Positions 27 through 13,056 of a stretch of DNA of 64,000 nt are shown piece after piece. How positions within the stretch are numbered: the stretch's first letter is position 1; every line of letters begins with the position of its first letter. The notes below the pieces were generated by a model. The model saw only the letters and a program-made list of their open reading frames with translations, was not told where the DNA came from and ran no database searches. The translations under genes and the position numbers were made by a program. Location of the stretch: the NCBI GenBank assembly GCA_965277805.1, contig OZ255842.1, positions 2,976,001 through 3,040,000 on the forward strand, written 5' to 3'. Source of the DNA: Candidatus Lustribacter sp. (GTDB lineage Bacteria; Vulcanimicrobiota; Vulcanimicrobiia; Vulcanimicrobiales; Vulcanimicrobiaceae).

Positions 27-1631
27 CTAGATCGACCAGCTGCGGATATCCCACGTTTCGACGACGGGGTTGGGGTCGAAGCCGTGCAGGTCAGGATTCA
101 GGACTTGGATGTTGCGGAACCACCACAAGAAATCGATCGGCGCGTCGTGGATGACCAATGCTTCGATCGTTGCGTAGGCGCGTTTCCGCTCGGGGATGTC
201 GTAGTTGGTGAGCGCCTCCGCCTGCGCGGCATCCATCGCAGGCGAGCAGTAGTATGACTGATTGTAGCCGCCGGGAGGACGGCTCGAGCACAAGAGCGTT
301 GCCGAGTTGTCCGGGTCGATGCCCGAGTACCATTGGTAAATCGCGATTTGGTAGTTGCCGCGTGTGAGCGTCCCGCCCGCGGCGTAGCCGGCGTACATTT
401 GCGTGCTCAGTTGCGCGCGCGCGTGGACCTCAACGCCGATACCGTGCAGTGCCTCTTGGATCTGCACGGCCAGCGAGCGCGAAACGGCCTGACTCTGCTC
501 GTACACCATATCGAGCACGAGCGGCTTCGCCGCGGTATAGCCGAGCGCGGCGAGCTGCCGGCGTGCTTCGTCGGGCGCATAGGGCAAGTTGCGCAGTTGC
601 GGATCGTATGCCCACATGAAGGCGGGCAGGTCGCCGGTGGCAACGGTGCCGGCGCCATACGTGAGATCGCTCGTGAGCCGGACCTTGTCGAGCGCCATCA
701 CGAGCGCGCGGCGCAGTCGCGGATCCGCGGTCGGCCCGCGGCCCGAATTGATCATCAACCCTTCGTAGCCGTTGACGTTCGGCAACACGACGGCGACGTC
801 GGGGATCGCGCGGATCGCGTTATAGGCACCGACCGAGGCCTCGTACATCCAGTCGGCTTCGTGCGCCCGCATCTGCTGCATCTCGGTATTCTCATCCGGT
901 ACGAACCGCCAAATGAGATGTTTGATCTTCGGCGCGCCGAGATAGTACTGCTCGTTGCTGACGAACTCGATGCGGTCGCCGCGCACCCAACGCACGAACT
1001 TGAACGGACCCGTCCCGATCGGCGCCGAGTTGAACGGCACGTCGTTGAGGCTCGCGAATTTCACCAGGACGTGGGCGGGCAGAACGCCGTACGGGCTATC
1101 GCTCTCGCCGAACACCACCGAAACGAATGGCGCGAACCGTTTGCGCAAATGGAAGCGCACGGTTAGCGGATCGGGCGTGTCGACGCTACGCACGATGTCG
1201 TATCCGTGGCGAGAGATCACGTCATTGGCCGGATTCATGATTGCGTCGTAGGTGAACTTCACATCCCGGCTCGTGAACGGAACGCCGTCCTGCCAGCGCA
1301 CGCCCGGCCGAAGATGATACGTGATCGCCAGCCCATCCGCACTGATCCCGCCGTTCGCGCGCGACGGAATCTCGCGCGCCAGCCGCGGCACCAACGTACC
1401 GTGCGCATCGGCGGAAACCAGAATATCGGTCGTCAACCGCCCGATCGATGCTTCAACCGTCTGCGTCGCCAGAATCGGATTGAGCGTACGCGGAATATTC
1501 GCCGAGATAACCCGCAGCGTATCCGGAATCGTCCACGTATGCCGCACCGCCGCGGCGCCCTCCGGCGCAACCCGCGTACACCCCGCCAACGCCGCGAAGA
1601 GCAGCGCTGCCAAGACCCGCGCGGTGCTTAT
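27..1631 (-). CDS. Peptide ABC transporter substrate-binding lipoprotein (SBP family 5)
   Basis: Lipobox LAGC; WQDGVPFTSRDVKFT and PIGTGPFKF motifs. Track start is TTG 1613; an in-frame ATA at 1631 overlaps the upstream TAA stop, so the start is uncertain. Confidence 0.9.
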   Translation of the reverse strand: MSTARVLAALLFAALAGCTRVAPEGAAAVRHTWTIPDTLRVISANIPRTLNPILATQTVEASIGRLTTDILVSADAHGTLVPRLAREIPSRANGGISADGLAITYHLRPGVRWQDGVPFTSRDVKFTYDAIMNPANDVISRHGYDIVRSVDTPDPLTVRFHLRKRFAPFVSVVFGESDSPYGVLPAHVLVKFASLNDVPFNSAPIGTGPFKFVRWVRGDRIEFVSNEQYYLGAPKIKHLIWRFVPDENTEMQQMRAHEADWMYEASVGAYNAIRAIPDVAVVLPNVNGYEGLMINSGRGPTADPRLRRALVMALDKVRLTSDLTYGAGTVATGDLPAFMWAYDPQLRNLPYAPDEARRQLAALGYTAAKPLVLDMVYEQSQAVSRSLAVQIQEALHGIGVEVHARAQLSTQMYAGYAAGGTLTRGNYQIAIYQWYSGIDPDNSATLLCSSRPPGGYNQSYYCSPAMDAAQAEALTNYDIPERKRAYATIEALVIHDAPIDFLWWFRNIQVLNPDLHGFDPNPVVETWDIRSWSI

Positions 1632-3685: not shown

Positions 3686-4288
3686 ATGAAGCGCTTTCTC
3701 GTCGCCGTCATTGCCGCATGGCTTTCCGCCGCGGCGATGGCCCGCGCGGAGGCGGTCGACGTGGTCGTCCAAGCCGGTCATGAAGGCCGGCCCGCCTCAT
3801 GTGCCCCCAATCACGTGCACGCCTGCAACATCGGCGCAAGTTCGGCGGCCGGGCGCGAAATCGCGTGGACCCCGATCGTTGCGGACGCGATGACCGCGAC
3901 GTTGCGCGCAGCCGGATTGCGCGTCGCGCGGCGCCCGGCCGACTACCCGCAGCACGATAGCGCGCGGGTCGCGATCTTCATCCACTTCGACGGCGCCGAG
4001 CCGCCGTGCGCGAGCGGGACGTCGGTCGGCTTCCCCGCCACGACCGCGCATAGCTTCGTCGCCGCGTGGGAACGCGCGTATCGCGGCTACTTCCCCTTCC
4101 ATGTTGCGGGCGAGAACATCAGTTCGAATGAAGAGCACTACTACGGTTTTCGCAAGGTCGATGCGCCGCAAAAGATGCTGATCGAGTACGGCGAGCTGAC
4201 GTGTCCCGCGCAGGCCGCGTGGCTGAAGCCGCGCCTGCGCGAGCTGGGGGAATTCACCGCCCACTTCATCATCGGGCAGTTGCGCTGA
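3686..4288 (+). CDS. Secreted N-acetylmuramoyl-L-alanine amidase-like protein (Amidase_3 fold)
   Basis: Signal peptide; VVQAGHEG, E and IFIHFDG zinc-ligand motifs, LIEYG; RBS AAGGAAGG. Confidence 0.7.
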   Translation: MKRFLVAVIAAWLSAAAMARAEAVDVVVQAGHEGRPASCAPNHVHACNIGASSAAGREIAWTPIVADAMTATLRAAGLRVARRPADYPQHDSARVAIFIHFDGAEPPCASGTSVGFPATTAHSFVAAWERAYRGYFPFHVAGENISSNEEHYYGFRKVDAPQKMLIEYGELTCPAQAAWLKPRLRELGEFTAHFIIGQLR

Positions 4289-5157
4289 TGCAGCGCAGCG
4301 CATTCATGGCCGGCAGCGCGGCTGCCCTGGCCGCACCGCGGCCCGTTCGCGCGCAGACGATTCCGGTGGCCGATCTCGTCGACCGCTTTCCGGGCGTCAT
4401 CGGCATCTACTGCCGCACGCTTACGCCCGCGCCGCCGCTCGTCTCCGTGCGCGCGAACGAAGTCTTTGCCGCAGCCTCGATCATCAAGCTGCCGATCATG
4501 CTGACGGTCTATCGCGCCTACGAACGCAAGACCGCCTCGCCCGACGAGTACGTCACGCTGCTGCCCGGCGACATTACGGAAGGTGCACCGGTTCTCGGCG
4601 ACGCGCATTCGGGCCAGCGCTGGCCGATCGGCGTGCTCGTCAACGCGATGATCAAGTACAGCGACAACATCGCCTCCAACGCCCTGATCAGCCACTTCGG
4701 GTTCACCGCGATCAACGAGACGATCCGCAAGGCCGGGATGACCAAAACGGTCCTGGCACGCCACTTTGCCGGCGAAGTTCCGCCCGGACGGCGCAACCTC
4801 AACGTGACGACGCCGCACGACATCGGCGTGCTGCTCTACGAGATCGAGCGCGGCGCACACGAAGGTATTCCGACCGTCGCCTCGCCGGCTTCATGCCGCG
4901 CGATGGTGCAGACGATGCTCGGGCAGCAGTATCGCGAGATGATTCCGGCCGGCGTGAAGCGGCACGTGCCGATCGCGAACAAAACGGGCGAGCTCGACAA
5001 TGTGCGCAGCGATGCGGCGATCGTCGACCCGCTGAGCGAGGCACCGTACATCCTGGTGCTGCTCACTCGCGACCTCGATTACCCGGGCTTAGCCTACGGC
5101 GAGGTCGCCGAGTTTGCGCAGCGCATCGACAACGCAATGCGCCGCATCAGCCACTAG
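4288..5157 (+). CDS. Serine hydrolase, class A beta-lactamase-like family
   Basis: SIIK (SxxK), SDN and KTG motifs; TGATG overlap with the amidase. Confidence 0.85.
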   Translation: MQRSAFMAGSAAALAAPRPVRAQTIPVADLVDRFPGVIGIYCRTLTPAPPLVSVRANEVFAAASIIKLPIMLTVYRAYERKTASPDEYVTLLPGDITEGAPVLGDAHSGQRWPIGVLVNAMIKYSDNIASNALISHFGFTAINETIRKAGMTKTVLARHFAGEVPPGRRNLNVTTPHDIGVLLYEIERGAHEGIPTVASPASCRAMVQTMLGQQYREMIPAGVKRHVPIANKTGELDNVRSDAAIVDPLSEAPYILVLLTRDLDYPGLAYGEVAEFAQRIDNAMRRISH

Positions 5158-7439: not shown

Positions 7440-7466
7440 TTGCGCAACGCTTCCGTTCGCGGCAGT

Positions 7467-8399
7467 TCAGTCCTCCGGATGCTCCACCACGTCGATCATC
7501 GCTTCGACGACCAGCGGATCGAACTGCGTTTCGCGGTGTTTGACCAATTGGTCGAGGGCAAGCGAGGGTGACATCGCCTGACGATACGGCCTGCGCCCGA
7601 TCATGGCATTGAAGCAATCAGCGACGCTGACGATGCGCACATCCACTGTAATTTCGTCGCCGGCGAGGCGGTCGGGATAGCCCTTGCCGTCTGGCCGTTC
7701 GTGGTGGCTCGCAACCAGCGGGGCGAAGGGCCGCAGGCGTTCGACCTCGCGAACCATCGCGGCGCCGGCTGTCGTATGATCGCGCATGGTCGCGAACTCC
7801 GCCTCGGTCAACATACGCGGAGCGAGCAAGATCTCGCGCGGAGTCAGCGTTTTTCCCACGTCGTGGAGCAGCCCGCCACGCGCCACAAACAAACGCTGTT
7901 CCTCGGGAAGTCCCAACCGGAGCGCAAGCCGGCGGCACCACAGTGAAACGGCTCGCGAATGTTCGGCACTCAGCGGATCCGTATCATCGAGGCGCACCAA
8001 AAACGCCCCGATGGACTCGTCGATGCCGTCCGACATGACGTGTGTTTGCGGGTCGCCGGCGGCTTTCAGTTCAGAAAGTTTGGTTGCTATCGCGCGCTCG
8101 AGTGCCTGCAAGTCGCTCTCGAGTGAGTCACTGCCTAGCTTCCGGCGCCGCAATTCACGTTGCGCAACAGGGCACGCCGCCCGCAACAACGCTGCGATAT
8201 TCGGAAAGGCACCGTAGCGCTCGCACGCACCCTGTGCCCACTGCGCCAACTGCAATGAGCCGGAACCACTGCGGGCGTCGTCGAGACGCTCCGCAAACGC
8301 CATCGCCACGAGATGCACCATGACGGTCGGTTGGGCGTCAGTTTCCGCCACAAAGGCTGCCGCGAATTCTCGTCGCAGCGGTAGATCTGCCGCTACCAT
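7467..8399 (-). CDS. HD-GYP domain phosphohydrolase with an uncharacterised N-terminal region
   Basis: EHSRAV, LLHDVGK, HHERPDGKGYP and ADCFNAM..RPYR motifs. GTG 8402/ATG 8399 overlaps the upstream TGA stop. Confidence 0.85.
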   Translation of the reverse strand: MVAADLPLRREFAAAFVAETDAQPTVMVHLVAMAFAERLDDARSGSGSLQLAQWAQGACERYGAFPNIAALLRAACPVAQRELRRRKLGSDSLESDLQALERAIATKLSELKAAGDPQTHVMSDGIDESIGAFLVRLDDTDPLSAEHSRAVSLWCRRLALRLGLPEEQRLFVARGGLLHDVGKTLTPREILLAPRMLTEAEFATMRDHTTAGAAMVREVERLRPFAPLVASHHERPDGKGYPDRLAGDEITVDVRIVSVADCFNAMIGRRPYRQAMSPSLALDQLVKHRETQFDPLVVEAMIDVVEHPED

Positions 8400-10522
8400 C
8401 ACGTGGCGCTCCACGGCATGGCAAGCCGCCCGTATGGAATGGTCGCGATCATGCGAGCCCAGCCACCGAGCCCATTCGCGTGCATCTGTTCGAGAAGCGT
8501 CAGCAAAGACTCGCTGCGGCACTCCTGTTTTGATCCCGCAATCGCCGCCAGAACGTCGTGAAACGGGGCGAAACGCGGCCAGCGCACGATCTCCGTTGCG
8601 GTCGCATCCAGGAGTTCCCGCGCGCCGGTGATCCGCCCCAGCACGAGTGCCGCCAGTGCCAGAAGCAGTTCCGCGCGCAATGTTTCGACACTGTGCCTGC
8701 TTTCAACCGCCGCAAGTTCGCCATGCGCACATGCGAGCGCGTCGGGGGCGCCGGTCATGCCGGCGATCGCGCCGTACAGACCGATTTCCGCCCACCGAAG
8801 AGCGCGCGTCTCCGGCGAACTCTGCCTTCCCCCGCTTGCAACGAGCAGCGCATAGGCGTTGTCGAACGCACCCGACCACGTACTTTGGAGTGCCCGAGCG
8901 GGCATCAAGCCTTCCTCGACGTGCTGCAGGCTTGCTTCGATTTCTTCACCCGCAAGCTGAGCATCCAACTTCGCCAATGCAGGAGCGTTGCAGCGCTCCG
9001 CTTCGATCAGATATGTGCCGATCAGCGCGAAGCGACGAAAAATTGCGTTGCCGAGGCGCGCTGCGGCCTTGCCGATGTCGGTTAGCGCCTCGAGAGCTTG
9101 CAGCTGGTCGTCATTATATGAAAAAGCAACAACGTACGAGACGCTGCGAGCGACCGCGATGAGATCGTCGTTTCCGTGTTCCTGGGCAAGGGACGCCGCC
9201 AGTTGCGCGTGCTTCTGGGCTCGCTCAGGGTCGGCCGCGCTCAGGGCCACGAACGCCGCCCGCTGATGCACGGTCGCCCGTACGGCAACGTCGTCGATGA
9301 GCTCAAGCGCGGCAACGGCTTGGCCGACGCAGGCTTCGGCTTGCGCCTGCCGTCCGGCGCTTGCATGAGCCGTCGCGAGTGATGCCAAGATCGACACGGC
9401 GTGAGTGCCGCCCGCATGCCGCGAGAGCGCTTCAAGACGGTCGAATGCGTCGGTTCGCCCGCGCCGCAGCAGTTCGACCGCAAATGCGATGTCGATTCGC
9501 AAGCGTTGCGCTTCATCTCGCGCCAGCCGGAGAGCGTTCTCGAACCATGCCTCGGAAACGTCGTAGCGGCCGCGATAGGATTCATCGATCGCCTCGAGCA
9601 TGAGGGCGATCGGGATCTCGCGGCGTGTTTCCGGCGGAAGTGCGCTTATCGCAGCAAAGACGATGTCTGCTGCGTCACCATCGTGAAGATCGAATCCGTA
9701 ACAATCGAGGATCCGCTTCACGTCGATATGTGCTCGAGCCGCCACGTACCATTGCAATGCCGCGCCGAAATTGCCCGCCGCCTCCAATGATCGTGCGGCC
9801 GCCTCCCAGTTGCCGGCAGGAGCGCCGGGGTCTTCGCGCGGCGCGCTTACGTCGCCGGCGCCGGCGACGATCGCTCCGATGCAGCCGTCGTTGCGCTCCC
9901 GGAGCCATTCGATCAGCGCGGCGTCGGTCTCCAGTGACGCCGCAAGGTCGGGCACATCGCCGGCTTCGAACCGCAGTGCGAACTCGTCCACCGAAGCGTC
10001 CGCAAGTCCGGACGCCAGCCACCGCGGTAACGGCAACGCCGCCGTCGAACGGGTTCCGAGGATCCAGCGAACGTAGCCGCCGCTGGCTTCAGCCATGGCG
10101 ACGAGAAATCCAAACGCGGCGTCGCTTTCATCGATCCGATGTAACTGGTCGACCGCGATGACGACCGGCCTCTCGAGTTGTTCGGCCAACCACGTCGCGA
10201 TACTCCGCCACGAATTCGATTGGCGCCGCGCGCTGGAAACGGCTGCCGGCAAAAGCTTGAGCGCCCGGGGGGCTACGGGCGCCAACGCCTCCGTTAACCC
10301 GCGCGCAAACGCGGCGACGCCGGCGTGTTCCGCACCAACCGCGAACGTCACGACCGGTTCCTTGAGCATCGCGAGGTGCTGCTCGATGGCCACGCTCTTA
10401 CCGCATCCCGCGCGTCCATGAACCACCACGATGCGGCGGCGCGCCGACACGCGCAACCGCCGCGTGACGCGCGGCCGTGCAACTCGAGCCGGGGCCACAC
10501 TGCCCGGCGCTGCGGAGGTCAT
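8399..10522 (-). CDS. MalT-like P-loop (STAND-like) + TPR-type helical protein, no evident HTH
   Basis: RPRVTRRL, Walker A GRAGCGKS, Walker B-like IAVDQLH, LGTRS, LRF; long Ala/Leu helical repeats; ATGA overlap. Confidence 0.7.
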   Translation of the reverse strand: MTSAAPGSVAPARVARPRVTRRLRVSARRRIVVVHGRAGCGKSVAIEQHLAMLKEPVVTFAVGAEHAGVAAFARGLTEALAPVAPRALKLLPAAVSSARRQSNSWRSIATWLAEQLERPVVIAVDQLHRIDESDAAFGFLVAMAEASGGYVRWILGTRSTAALPLPRWLASGLADASVDEFALRFEAGDVPDLAASLETDAALIEWLRERNDGCIGAIVAGAGDVSAPREDPGAPAGNWEAAARSLEAAGNFGAALQWYVAARAHIDVKRILDCYGFDLHDGDAADIVFAAISALPPETRREIPIALMLEAIDESYRGRYDVSEAWFENALRLARDEAQRLRIDIAFAVELLRRGRTDAFDRLEALSRHAGGTHAVSILASLATAHASAGRQAQAEACVGQAVAALELIDDVAVRATVHQRAAFVALSAADPERAQKHAQLAASLAQEHGNDDLIAVARSVSYVVAFSYNDDQLQALEALTDIGKAAARLGNAIFRRFALIGTYLIEAERCNAPALAKLDAQLAGEEIEASLQHVEEGLMPARALQSTWSGAFDNAYALLVASGGRQSSPETRALRWAEIGLYGAIAGMTGAPDALACAHGELAAVESRHSVETLRAELLLALAALVLGRITGARELLDATATEIVRWPRFAPFHDVLAAIAGSKQECRSESLLTLLEQMHANGLGGWARMIATIPYGRLAMPWSAT

Positions 10523-11892
10523 GAGTTGAAGGCTTGATTACCGTTCGGCGCGCCGATCCCGGTGGGTCCGTCGTAGCCGGGCTGGGACTGGCAAAAGTAC
10601 GCTATTGCGCACGTGCCGTTGCTTCCCGACGTGATCGAAAAGAACGTGTTTGCATGATTGTAGAGTTGCTGCGCGCCGGCGTAGTGTTCCGGATGCGGTC
10701 CCATGGCAATGATCGCTGAAACGATCGGAGACCCGATACTCGTTCCCCCAATGACAGTCCAGCCGCCGCTCGAACCATTTAAGATACTGTCGTACACGGC
10801 CATCCCGGTCGACGGGTCGGCGACGACGGCGAGATCGTTCATCACTCGCATCTTGCATCCGGGATCGTGCTGCCAATTCGGCTTCTTGATGAACGCGCTG
10901 CACCCACTGTTCGTCAACGGCCAAACGACTTCAGAGAGCCCGCCCGCTGACTCATACAGTGTCGTTCCGCCGACCGCAATGACGTACTCCGAGGAAGCGG
11001 GGAACATGGCCCCATAGCCGCGGTCTCCGGCAGAAGCGACCACTGCGACGCCCGGGTGATTGTAATGCGAGTCGTATTGGACGTTGTCCGAGGCTTCGGG
11101 AACACCGTAGCTGTTACTGATCACCTTCGCGCCGGCGGCTGCTGCACGGTCGACAGCCGCTGCGAGATCGGGAATGTTCGAGCTCGACGCTTCAACCAGC
11201 ATGATATTGCAGGCCGGGCAGACCGCAGAAACCGTCTCAATGTCGGTGGCGGCCTCGACGGCCCAGCCAACGTTCAGCGCCGGATAATTCGTGCTACCGT
11301 CCTGAGCTATTTTCTTAAAGCATCCATTCGCGGTAGTGCATGGCGGCAACCCGAAGGTGTTGCGATAGACGGCGAGGTCGGCTTCGGCCGCCGGATCGTC
11401 GAAGGCTACCACGACGGCCACCGTTACGTGTGCGCCGTCGTTGAGATTGAGCGGGGGTAAGTTGTAGATCTGCTGGATCCAGCCCGGCAACATACCGCTG
11501 AGCAGTTCGGCCGGCGTAGAAGAGGGCTGAATAGGCACATCGGTGCGAACCTTCGCGTGACAGCCAGCCGGGCCGGGCGTGTTTCCCGCGAGGGTACATA
11601 GAGCGCTGCTGGTCGTTCCGTTGACTTGACCGATGGCCGGAAACGCGCTTAAAGGTGCCGGAAATGCACTCAACGGCGCGGGAAACGCGCTCAACGGCGC
11701 GGGGAAAGCGCTTAGTGCTGCAGTATCCCGGCGATCGATCGTTTGGGTGGAGACCGATGCGAGCGGCCGGTGTGCCGATAGGGCGGCGGATTCGAAAGCG
11801 GACGTCGTCGCAGTCGTCGTGGGTAATCCGCCGGCGCATCCTGCGCACATCACGACAAAAACGAGGCCCGACATTGGCCAGCGAAAACGCAT
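10519..11892 (-). CDS. S53 (sedolisin-family) serine peptidase, probable lipoprotein
   Basis: WAVEAATD (ExxxD), SAGD, GGTS and the calcium loop YDGPTGIG; RBS AGGAG before ATG 11892; signal peptide ending CAGC. Confidence 0.85.
   Translation of the reverse strand: MRFRWPMSGLVFVVMCAGCAGGLPTTTATTSAFESAALSAHRPLASVSTQTIDRRDTAALSAFPAPLSAFPAPLSAFPAPLSAFPAIGQVNGTTSSALCTLAGNTPGPAGCHAKVRTDVPIQPSSTPAELLSGMLPGWIQQIYNLPPLNLNDGAHVTVAVVVAFDDPAAEADLAVYRNTFGLPPCTTANGCFKKIAQDGSTNYPALNVGWAVEAATDIETVSAVCPACNIMLVEASSSNIPDLAAAVDRAAAAGAKVISNSYGVPEASDNVQYDSHYNHPGVAVVASAGDRGYGAMFPASSEYVIAVGGTTLYESAGGLSEVVWPLTNSGCSAFIKKPNWQHDPGCKMRVMNDLAVVADPSTGMAVYDSILNGSSGGWTVIGGTSIGSPIVSAIIAMGPHPEHYAGAQQLYNHANTFFSITSGSNGTCAIAYFCQSQPGYDGPTGIGAPNGNQAFNS
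11635..11715 (-). repeat. 21-bp coding tandem repeat: (LSAFPAP)3-LSAFPA
   Basis: Four units read directly from the sequence; all differences between units are synonymous. Confidence 0.95.
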
Positions 11893-12022
11893 AGTCTCCT
11901 CTGCATTTGTACGTTGGGAATCAGGTAAACGCCCAACCCTCATGGTCAAGCGATGGGTTGAGTTATTACCCCCCTGCTTGCCGCATAAACCGCCTAAACA
12001 TTTTCGCGATGTTCAAAGATTG

Positions 12023-12044
12023 CAATGCGACACGCGTCACATTG
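12023..12044. promoter_or_regulatory. CRP/FNR-family binding site
   Basis: aaTGCGA-cacgcg-TCACAtt versus the TGTGA-N6-TCACA consensus, in an AT-rich intergenic region. Confidence 0.55.
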
Positions 12045-12075
12045 TAAAGCTCGCTTTAAAAAACTCTGCGGACCC

Positions 12076-13056
12076 CTATAGATGGACCGGCACGAATTTA
12101 CGCGTGATCAGCGTCTCGGGATCGGGCTTCTTGTCGAGAATCCCGAGATCGACGAACGAAGCGGCGAGCACTTGGAGCGCGGCGTTATCCCAGGCGCCGT
12201 TGCTCGACATCATGTTCATGATCGCATCGTACGATTGCCCCATCGACGCCTCGCTGACTTCCTCGTATTTTGCCGCGATGCTGATCGTCTGGGCGCGGTG
12301 GCTTTTCATGTAGCCAACCGAACGGAACCAGCCATCGAGGAACTTCTTGACCTGATCGGGGTGCGCCGCCACGAAATCATTGCGCGCGAAGATGACATGC
12401 GTGATGAAATGCGGCACGGTCGAGCCGAAGTTCATCAGAATGCGGCCCTGCTGATGCTCTTGCATGTCGTAACCGAGTTCGGTGGCCGCGATGAAGCCGT
12501 CGACCTCGCCCGTCTTCAGCGCGGCCGTCTGGGCTTTCGTGTCGCCGAGCGCGACGGTCGCAATGCCCGTCGGACCCCATTGATTCTTCACCGCAATCTG
12601 TTTCGCGAGCCAGTCCGTCAGCGAGCCGGCCGTGGTCACGCCGATGCGTTTCCCCTTCAGATCGGCGGCGCTCTTGATCGGGGAGTCGCTCGAAACCATC
12701 AGCGCCATGTTGTACGGCGAAGCGGCCAGTTCGGCGACGCCGATCGCCGGCACGCCTTTGGCGAGAAACCCGAGTCCGGGTCCCGACCCCAGACCGATCT
12801 CGATGTTCCCGGACGTCAGAGCCTGCTGCACTTGACCGTCTCCGCGCAGCGCGGATGACTGCACCTGAATGCCTTCGCGCTGCCAGATGCCGGCCGCTTC
12901 GCCGACCTGGATCGCGAGAAACGCGAGCGACACCGCTTGCGCCGTACCGACGCGAATGACCGGCAGATCGGCGCCCGGCAGCCGCGCCGGCACGAGTGCG
13001 AGGCTGAGCGCGCACACGGCGATCACCGCGGCGATGGTTGGACGAAGAGCACGCAT
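12076..13056 (-). CDS. ABC substrate-binding protein, NitT/TauT (SsuA/NMT1-like)
   Basis: Signal peptide; SPIKSAADLKGKRIGVT and ALKTGEVDG motifs. Confidence 0.85.
   Translation of the reverse strand: MRALRPTIAAVIAVCALSLALVPARLPGADLPVIRVGTAQAVSLAFLAIQVGEAAGIWQREGIQVQSSALRGDGQVQQALTSGNIEIGLGSGPGLGFLAKGVPAIGVAELAASPYNMALMVSSDSPIKSAADLKGKRIGVTTAGSLTDWLAKQIAVKNQWGPTGIATVALGDTKAQTAALKTGEVDGFIAATELGYDMQEHQQGRILMNFGSTVPHFITHVIFARNDFVAAHPDQVKKFLDGWFRSVGYMKSHRAQTISIAAKYEEVSEASMGQSYDAIMNMMSSNGAWDNAALQVLAASFVDLGILDKKPDPETLITRKFVPVHL

Follow-up and report, generated by a model that had tools for sequence, protein, structure and literature searches.

In the MalT/LAL-type STAND regulators, as outlined in PMC4381067 and PMC6468293, an inducer binds the sensor domain, and nucleotide exchange and multimerisation follow. 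A protein of related build is encoded by the second of three overlapping genes on the minus strand of contig OZ255842.1; the first encodes an S53 peptidase and the third an HD-GYP protein. This trio is described here from a stretch of 64,000 nt of the contig (the window), to which all coordinates refer unless a locus or genome handle precedes them. Like the MalT/LAL activators, the STAND protein has an AAA_16/MalT-type P-loop NTPase domain followed by a TPR-like superhelical sensor, and a C-terminal LuxR/GerE helix-turn-helix (HTH) domain is present in 40 of 105 related sensors, Pfam-confirmed in 19 of the 50 STAND proteins scanned. Unlike them, it has neither HTH nor winged-helix/arm segment, its output is a separate or fused HD-GYP domain, and its proposed inducer would be a peptide encoded in the neighbouring protease gene.

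The RRNPP systems (PlcR-PapR, NprR-NprX, Rap-Phr, and Rgg-SHP) resemble the locus, in the reading proposed below, in that a short unmodified peptide would be re-imported and recognised by a cytoplasmic TPR receptor encoded alongside, receptor and peptide would diversify together, and several parallel modules occur per genome. NprR-NprX also adjoins a protease gene. The receptor of the window differs from RRNPP proteins in being a STAND ATPase with an NTPase domain foreign to them. The candidate peptides are present as 2–9 tandem copies in the tether of the putative maturation protease and not in a separate small pro-peptide gene, the phylum is Eremiobacterota and not Bacillota, and the output can be a cyclic-dinucleotide phosphodiesterase. 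With RpfG of the diffusible signal factor (DSF) system, PmGH, PA4781, and V-cGAP3, the third protein shares the HD_5 domain with HD and HHExxDGxGYP motifs. RpfG couples a cell-cell signal to the breakdown of cyclic di-GMP (c-di-GMP). In the known HD-GYPs, a receiver (REC) domain or another N-terminal sensor is mostly in control, whereas the partner of the window HD-GYP is a STAND/TPR protein. The concept of multi-copy precursors of signalling peptides is treated in PMC5850478. Like the Kex2-processed yeast alpha-factor and the neuropeptide polyproteins, the repeat-bearing S53 proteins contain several identical copies of a short peptide, kept identical by selection; unlike in those precursors, precursor and presumed processing protease are here one polypeptide, a bacterial lipoprotein. 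The window peptidase has the Glu, Asp, and Ser and the oxyanion Asp of sedolisins such as kumamolisin (MEROPS S53) in alignment, and it differs from them in lacking the pro-kumamolisin activation domain, in being lipid-anchored, and in its peptide-repeat tether. In a literature search at the level of abstracts, no S53-STAND-HD-GYP or S53-LAL module, repeat-bearing sedolisin lipoprotein, or STAND-HD-GYP protein was found described. The parts belong to known families; to our knowledge, neither their wiring nor peptide repeats borne by a protease have been described before.

The best explanation of the trio and its relatives is a pherotype-like peptide-sensing circuit with c-di-GMP or cyclic GMP-AMP (cGAMP) output, for which the probability is estimated at about 0.5. 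The S53 gene starts at ATG 11892 with GAGGAG in front, and its stop overlaps the STAND start in ATGA at 10519–10522. The STAND/HD-GYP junction is GTGATG at 8397–8402, in which the STAND stop TGA occupies 8399–8401 and either ATG (1-nt overlap) or GTG (4-nt overlap) could start the HD-GYP gene. A further in-frame GTG at 8522 would lengthen the HD-GYP protein; the starts in relatives adjoin the STAND stop. The three genes are thus locked by stop/start overlaps, as an earlier sequence-only reading of this DNA had proposed. Its S53 assignment also stands: a Pfam match of the Peptidase_S8 clan was obtained, kumamolisins are the closest solved relatives (kumamolisin-As, E 2.8e-14), and E-x-x-x-D (VEAATD), SAGDRG, and GGTSIGSP, comprising the triad and the oxyanion-hole Asp, align with kumamolisin-As at the positions that we take to be catalytic in kumamolisin. 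The repeat DNA has a 21-nt period, with 3.7 copies at 11636–11712 and 82% matches, and the first three LSAFPAP copies differ by 17 synonymous and 0 non-synonymous changes. No match to the pro-kumamolisin activation domain (Pro-kuma_activ, PF09286) was found by Pfam in the window S53 protein, so the repeat region is no sedolisin pro-domain; it is a predicted tether between lipobox Cys and catalytic domain. The identical short peptides that the sequence-only reading had placed in the protease's own pro-region are therefore present as LSAFPAP repeats, but in a lipoprotein tether. The orthologue in sister genome G003 has a classic LLAGC lipobox and the same repeat units.

The STAND protein matches AAA_16 (3.3e-9) and AAA_22 (8.2e-9), and residues 15–136 of the MalT model align to it; with 29.6 bits against a cut-off of 537, it does not belong to the full-length MalT family. 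No GerE/LuxR HTH was found in it by Pfam scan, and the same scan returned no TPR match in the window protein itself. TPR_12, TPR_2, and TPR_MalT matches occur in its relatives, and a profile of the sensor domain compared with PDB matched LGN (E 3.4e-7), the TPR sensor of the STAND protein PH0952 (0.0044), and MalT domain III (0.023); the protein alone gave no match to PDB sequences at E 0.01. Of the predicted HTH-less STAND/TPR sensor, the NTPase and the absence of HTH were thus confirmed directly, and the TPR part is supported by profile and relatives. No relationship to RRNPP receptors was recognised, the best match of the sensor profile among them being RapI at E 0.61. A word-based homologue search with the STAND protein found 16 proteins, and an HMM search of 1.84 billion representatives with the sensor profile 362 matches at E ≤ 1e-30; when related loci were sought with the STAND protein alone, only a metagenome-assembled genome record equivalent to G003 was found. 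The HD-GYP assignment is secure, with HD_5 (PF13487) at E 7.8e-37, LLHDVGK and the full HHERPDGKGYP (HHExxDGxGYP) motif in the translation, and V-cGAP3 (7.7e-31), PmGH (2.3e-21), and PA4781 (5.9e-21) as solved relatives. The N-terminal part of about 135 aa had no family match, and its best ESM Atlas score of 0.76 is below the useful level. The genome itself has a c-di-GMP network with 34 GGDEF and 13 HD_5 matches. In view of the GGDEF matches, c-di-GMP is a plausible predicted substrate, and 3'3'-cGAMP may be an alternative.

The trio is one signalling module of a larger system. Within the genomes searched, this system occurs only in a single family of Candidatus Eremiobacterota. The sensor domain (residues 231–707) was found in 105 of 151 genomes of this family at E ≤ 1e-15, with up to six matches in one genome. 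In a phylum-wide sample at E ≤ 1e-10, it was present in 80 of 113 genomes of the family and in 0 of 87 genomes from 20 other families, a range that holds for the sampled genomes and this sensor query. The family and phylum tallies include the unpublished genomes G015, G042, G044, G051, G052, G064, G118, G121, G130, G154, G162, and G276, and loci from unpublished genomes are L020, L028, L040, L069, L070, L075, L083, L085, L087, L123, and L157. S53 homologues are multi-copy and present in 117 of the 151 family genomes. Among the best 150 sensor places, 56 have one of the best 150 S53 places within 5 kb, 55 of them on the same strand; this is a lower bound, since re-examination of 47 "unpaired" sensors brought to light a nearby S53 gene for 16. 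The locus counts that follow are taken from tblastn coordinates. Mapped in this way were 52 paired loci, the sensor places lacking a listed S53 (48 of 94, in rank order), and the S53 places lacking a listed sensor (40 of 88). An S53 gene lies within 4 kb of 35/37 GerE-type, 39/65 HD-GYP-type, and 0/3 both-type sensors. The gene order varies between S53-STAND-HD (as in the window), STAND-HD-S53, and STAND(GerE)-S53, and the linkage is kept, which argues for functional coupling. The synteny anticipated in the sequence-only reading is therefore real in many genomes, but the trio is not the stand-alone invention it was taken for; it is one variant of a family-wide system, with S53 optional for HD-GYP-type sensors.

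The output of the sensors changes between DNA binding and HD-GYP. Of 105 sensors at 103 loci, 65 have a downstream or fused HD-GYP only, 37 a fused C-terminal GerE/LuxR HTH only, three both, and none neither; without the unpublished genomes, the numbers are 57, 36, 3, and 0 (n = 96). In-frame STAND-HD-GYP fusions were found at four loci, L027 (1121 aa), L051 (1109 aa), L062 (982 aa), and L022 (995 aa, with a degenerate HD domain), and a fused C-terminal HD_5 follows the sensor in 10 of 14 long database representatives tested. From the near-exclusive alternation with GerE and from these fusions, it follows that HD-GYP takes the place of the HTH, an output swap on the same sensor scaffold. Strong support for the suggested relay from an HTH-less receptor to HD-GYP, in place of DNA, comes from the 102 sensors with one or the other output and from the fusions. 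All three both-output sensors (L121, L122, and L126, from genomes G137, G098, and G159) come from one genus and have no S53 gene within 4 kb. A conserved gene for a small protein of 188–226 aa, with an N-terminal domain without known family and a GerE HTH, directly follows S53-less STAND-HD-GYP pairs (Table 1); it could be a transcriptional reader of the HD-GYP output, e.g., a LuxR-type factor responsive to cyclic dinucleotides. Elsewhere in the window's own genome, other HD_5 genes adjoin more distant MalT-like STAND genes or small LuxR-type genes, and such partnerships of HD-GYP with STAND or LuxR proteins may be a common pattern in the lineage.

Nearly all linked S53 proteins have a lipobox (L-A-[AG]-C), and many have 2–9 tandem units of 7–8 residues between the lipid-anchor Cys and the catalytic domain. 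The units of GerE-type loci are 8-mers of D-x-x-x-A-L-P-G type (DNPSALPG, GTPQALPG, DAPSALPG, DTATGLPG, and others); those of HD-GYP-type loci are 7- or 8-mers (LSAFPAP, LRAFPAP, LTAVPWP, GARAIPI, and NGAMALPG), and the core A-[LFIM]-P is common to the units. A tandem-repeat score of at least 10 was reached by 24/35 GerE-linked, 10/35 HD-GYP-linked, and 2/45 unlinked S53 genes (23/34, 10/34, and 2/41 without unpublished genomes). The two unlinked genes are a PT-rich low-complexity case and L078, which is close kin of the linked S53s. In a quick maximum-likelihood tree, the linked S53s are apart from unlinked paralogues, with the GerE-linked ones as one clade (support 99). Both L078 and L077, a borderline case, belong to a linked clade. 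These last two are orphan repeat-bearing S53 lipoproteins without a STAND gene within 4.5 kb, and their units are LSAYPIG-like and SISAFPI. As their genomes (G017 and G082) hold S53-less STAND-HD-GYP pairs elsewhere, partners may act in trans. Repeat-less tethers of HD-GYP-linked S53s (L031, L049, L027, L062, L081, and L058) often contain a single motif like the unit of the sister clade, e.g., ARAIPITSP or LHAVPIGSP compared with GARAIPI, and copy numbers from 1 to 9 seem to occur. Copies within the same gene were compared in 34 repeat-bearing genes (this and the Mantel, identity-matrix, and tree counts below include L028 from an unpublished genome), and 654 synonymous and 56 non-synonymous differences were counted, 28 genes having no non-synonymous difference at all. 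The informative figure is the high proportion of synonymous differences (pS 0.63), as the low non-synonymous one (pN 0.02) is partly built in by detecting repeats through amino-acid identity, which reduces its value for the proposed circuit. Near-saturated synonymous divergence marks the copies as old; recent slippage or conversion is not the source of their identity. Selection acts on the peptide sequence of the repeats; a mere spacer would not need identical copies. Co-varying repeats, as sought after the sequence-only reading, are present in the sense that units vary between lineages yet stay identical within a protein.

The repeat type also tracks the sensor domain among the GerE-type relatives. 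For 22 GerE-type loci, the distance between repeat units correlated with that between sensors (Mantel r 0.35, p about 0.0008, a significance that Mantel tests on related sequences overstate), and the partial r was 0.35 given the S53 catalytic domain and 0.34 given the NTPase. With repeat-unit distance, no correlation was found for the distances between NTPases (r 0.14, p 0.14) or between S53 catalytic domains (r 0.14, p 0.13). The sensors of three GTPQALPG loci from three genera are 72–75% identical to each other, 64–67% identical to the sensor of the similar NTPEALPG unit, and 46–57% identical to those of all other types; five DN(P/A)SALPG/DSPSALPG loci have sensors 55–70% identical. NTPase identities (59–89%) and S53 identities (63–78%) form no blocks by peptide type. 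Both peptide classes come out as clades in the sensor tree, with supports of 90 and 91, and similar units are also shared by further sister pairs. The Mantel result, the identity blocks, and the clades thus agree with the expectation that repeat and sensor co-vary.

In the proposed circuit, the S53 peptidase would be exported and lipid-anchored, as its signal peptide and lipobox suggest, and its tether would present several copies of one peptide of 7–8 residues (here LSAFPAP) with a conserved A-[LFIM]-P-x at the end. The peptidase or a paralogue would cut the peptides out. The invariant Pro near the end of each unit fits a kumamolisin-type site, in so far as recognition of Pro-containing dipeptide motifs by kumamolisin is given in PMC8053163. 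The peptides would then be re-imported (17 OppA-type binding-protein matches are present in the genome) and be bound in the cytoplasm by the MalT-like STAND ATPase through its TPR-like sensor; by homology, the ATPase would then switch and multimerise. In many relatives, the activated STAND protein would act via its own C-terminal LuxR/GerE HTH; in the class of the window, HD-GYP, encoded immediately downstream or fused, replaces the HTH, as the comparison of genomes shows, and c-di-GMP (or 3'3'-cGAMP) would be broken down instead of DNA being bound. The HD-GYP substrate and the direction of phosphodiesterase control are predictions. As S53 stays linked with either output, DNA binding or HD-GYP, it is placed on the input side. 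Tentatively, at slightly less than even odds, the system is a class of peptide signalling between bacterial cells (or of a cell to itself) that has not been described before, and an independent functional analogue of RRNPP in Eremiobacterota, with peptides in a protease tether, a STAND/TPR receptor, pherotype pairs, and an HTH or HD-GYP output.

Several points weigh against this circuit. Its cleavage, release, uptake, and binding steps are predicted, and no transporter belongs to the module. The NTPase and S53 trees do not clearly reject monophyly of the peptide classes (approximately unbiased test, p 0.125 and 0.046 for NTPase and 0.29 for S53), and shared ancestry together with a faster-evolving sensor could explain part of the correlation. 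Sensor and repeats are adjacent on the DNA in GerE-type loci, so a co-inherited recombination tract is an alternative to functional matching there; the four parts of HD-GYP-type loci diverge in parallel, and nothing domain-specific is readable from them. Clear tandem repeats are missing in 25 of 35 HD-GYP-linked S53s, many of which have a single copy of a similar motif. No S53 gene lies within 4 kb of 26/65 HD-GYP-type sensors, and S53 is thus not obligatory for them. The STAND protein of the window, without winged-helix/arm, may not switch like a canonical STAND. When the sensor-domain alignment was folded with S53 residues 73–111 (four repeats), the score was 0.01 against a mark of 0.32 in a run without controls, which counts neither for nor against the circuit.

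The locus could also be a protease regulon with nutrient sensing, in which the STAND protein senses a small molecule or peptide that S53 activity yields from external proteins, or an unrelated metabolite of the cytoplasm, in the way MalT senses maltotriose, S53 is a co-regulated target, and the repeats are tether, spacer, or pseudo-substrate; this is considered rather unlikely. In the GerE-type loci examined, further canonical S53 genes of 589–645 aa follow the STAND-S53 pair (Table 1), and the Pro-kuma_activ domain was found in 5/5 of those tested; these genes are likely regulated cargo. A GerE-type sensor directly upstream of S53 and two more canonical pro-kumamolisin genes is a typical regulator-plus-regulon layout. 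The linked S53s are without a Pro-kuma_activ pro-domain, which makes an alternative inhibitory segment plausible, and the repeats could keep the sedolisin quiet until cleaved; the repeat-less HD-GYP-linked S53s also suit a regulon. However, unlinked S53 lipoproteins likewise have no pro-domain, yet 43/45 of them are without repeats, and a spacer needs no identical copies across saturated synonymous divergence. Furthermore, HD-GYP-type sensors without a DNA-binding domain keep S53 in the operon, which fits the input side better than a target, and the sensor clusters by repeat type.

It is improbable that the repeats are unreleased docking sites for an extracytoplasmic partner, or modification sites, with the STAND linkage reflecting co-expression only. 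Purifying selection on each copy would fit any sequence-specific recognition, and the conserved A-[LFIM]-P core with variable flanks could be a binding motif. Nevertheless, the covariation is with a cytoplasmic sensor domain, repeat-bearing S53s occur essentially only in STAND-linked clades, and no candidate partner gene is conserved in the loci examined.

Compared with locus L011 of G003, the DNA of the window is 64–85% identical at about 7450–12170 and about 95% identical in both flanks, with sharp borders. The flanking P450 and NMT1 genes are 98% identical (synonymous divergence, dS, 0.21–0.22), whereas the trio is 76–82% identical with dS of 0.89–1.23 (4–6 times the flanks) and dN/dS of 0.09–0.16. 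The trio and its promoter region behave like a cassette that has had a separate history and is under purifying selection. The island points to allelic replacement or an old polymorphism, in the manner of pherotype loci. This history accounts for the lower G+C content at third codon positions of the trio (0.70–0.72 against 0.75–0.85 in 19 flanking genes examined), by which the reported richness in A/T-ending codons was borne out. The intergenic stretch upstream of the S53 gene, which falls within the island, has 48.6% G+C against 65.4% window-wide (lowest 0.05% of 183-nt windows) and is AT-rich, as the sequence-only reading said. The window copy might be a decaying remnant, its STAND protein inactivated by winged-helix/arm loss so that the trio no longer signals. 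At the NTPase-sensor junction (9830–9850), no such segment is present in the window and G003. In most relatives it comprises roughly 75–100 residues, and 46 of 48 relatives compared have about 35–125 extra residues between the two blocks. Several relatives have a RYHDLF-type motif in the segment, and the next relative, G090, has the segment without the motif. Decay is very improbable, as the three open reading frames are intact, the deletion is common to G003 across dS of about 1 with purifying selection in all three genes, and both genomes have the same peptide repeats.

A conflict or defence system, in which the STAND NTPase would have HD nuclease-like and protease effectors as in Avs-type immunity, was rejected as hardly credible. 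In its favour, STAND NTPases that combine a TPR sensor with an HD or protease effector are common in defence, the island is hyper-divergent with atypical GC3, and HD-GYP has weak matches to Cas3 HD models (E 2e-6 to 5e-4). Against it, PADLOC returned 0 families for S53 and STAND, HD-GYP is canonical with a full GYP motif and cyclic-dinucleotide phosphodiesterases as closest solved relatives, the alternative output is a LuxR HTH, and the protease, as an exported lipoprotein, is unavailable to a cytoplasmic sensor.

Table 1. Features of the trio in the window, of its surroundings, and of related loci. Positions without a handle are window positions.
Feature	Position	Strand	Basis or remark
S53 (kumamolisin-like) peptidase, probable lipoprotein, 457 aa	10519-11892	-	Translation, domain match
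Signal peptide ending in lipobox-like CAG/C (MRFRWPMSGLVFVVMCAGC)	11836-11892	-	Read from sequence
Four tandem heptapeptide units, LSAFPAP x3 + LSAFPAI	11632-11715	-	Translation
S53 catalytic domain	10537-11472	-	Alignment to kumamolisin-As residues 13-349
MalT-like STAND protein without HTH, 707 aa	8399-10522	-	AAA_16, AAA_22, weak MalT N-terminal match
P-loop NTPase domain, Walker A GRAGCGKS	9848-10522	-	Pfam and sequence
TPR-like sensor domain, residues 231-707	8402-9832	-	Profile of sensor domain vs PDB
HD-GYP protein, 310 aa from ATG 8399	7467-8399 (8402 if GTG start)	-	HD_5 match
HD-GYP catalytic domain, LLHDVGK ... HHERPDGKGYP	7512-7991	-	HD_5 match, sequence, solved relatives
AT-rich intergenic stretch 5' of S53 gene, presumed operon promoter/regulatory region	11893-12075	-	GC content
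Hyper-divergent island vs G003, trio and upstream region	7450-12170	.	DNA identity, dS
Cytochrome P450 gene	6246-7439	-	
OppA-type (SBP_bac_5) binding-protein gene	27-1613	-	
Beta-lactamase2-family gene	4201-5157	+	
Small GerE-HTH protein genes	L074:5523-6200, L118:9219-9833, L125:4508-5101, L129:9335-9988, L143:9204-9818, L145:4249-4812		
Canonical S53 genes of GerE-type loci	L030:9698-11617 (one confirmed), L037:5005-8749 (two), L042:9751-13451 (two)		
Orphan repeat-bearing S53 lipoprotein genes	L077:4498-5517 (G017), L078:4660-5685 (G082)		
Other HD_5 places in the own genome, outside the window	G000:C1:2677510-2681845, 1920320-1925448, 2717374-2718217, 2032194-2033079		

The neighbours of the trio belong to unrelated metabolism (P450, NMT1-type binding protein, HMGL-like, and CoA ligase). 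No sigma-70-like site was found in the promoter scan, including the AT-rich intergenic stretch. The terminator scan gave two weak terminator-like sites, both inside genes and fewer than in shuffles. The cytochrome P450 gene begins 27 nt past the HD-GYP stop, with no terminator-like site found between, so read-through transcription is possible; at 98% identity to the G003 copy, it is outside the divergent island and not part of the cassette. The OppA-type gene, about 6 kb from the trio and one of 17 in the genome, and the Beta-lactamase2-family gene are not conserved with the module.

The HTH and HD-GYP alternatives on one scaffold, together with the natural fusions, make the STAND-to-effector step directly testable, and pherotype-like sets such as GTPQALPG and DNPSALPG suit specificity experiments with synthetic peptides. 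If the proposed circuit is true, a natural ligand class would be found for MalT-like STAND regulators, whose inducers mostly await identification, and a STAND hub would drive a cyclic-dinucleotide phosphodiesterase. The signal peptides would be made by a protein that is precursor and protease in one. In the accounts of PMC7564271 and PMC12998947, quorum sensing by peptides and cytoplasmic receptors counts as a Bacillota trait; the circuit, if true, would be its independent invention in an uncultured soil phylum.

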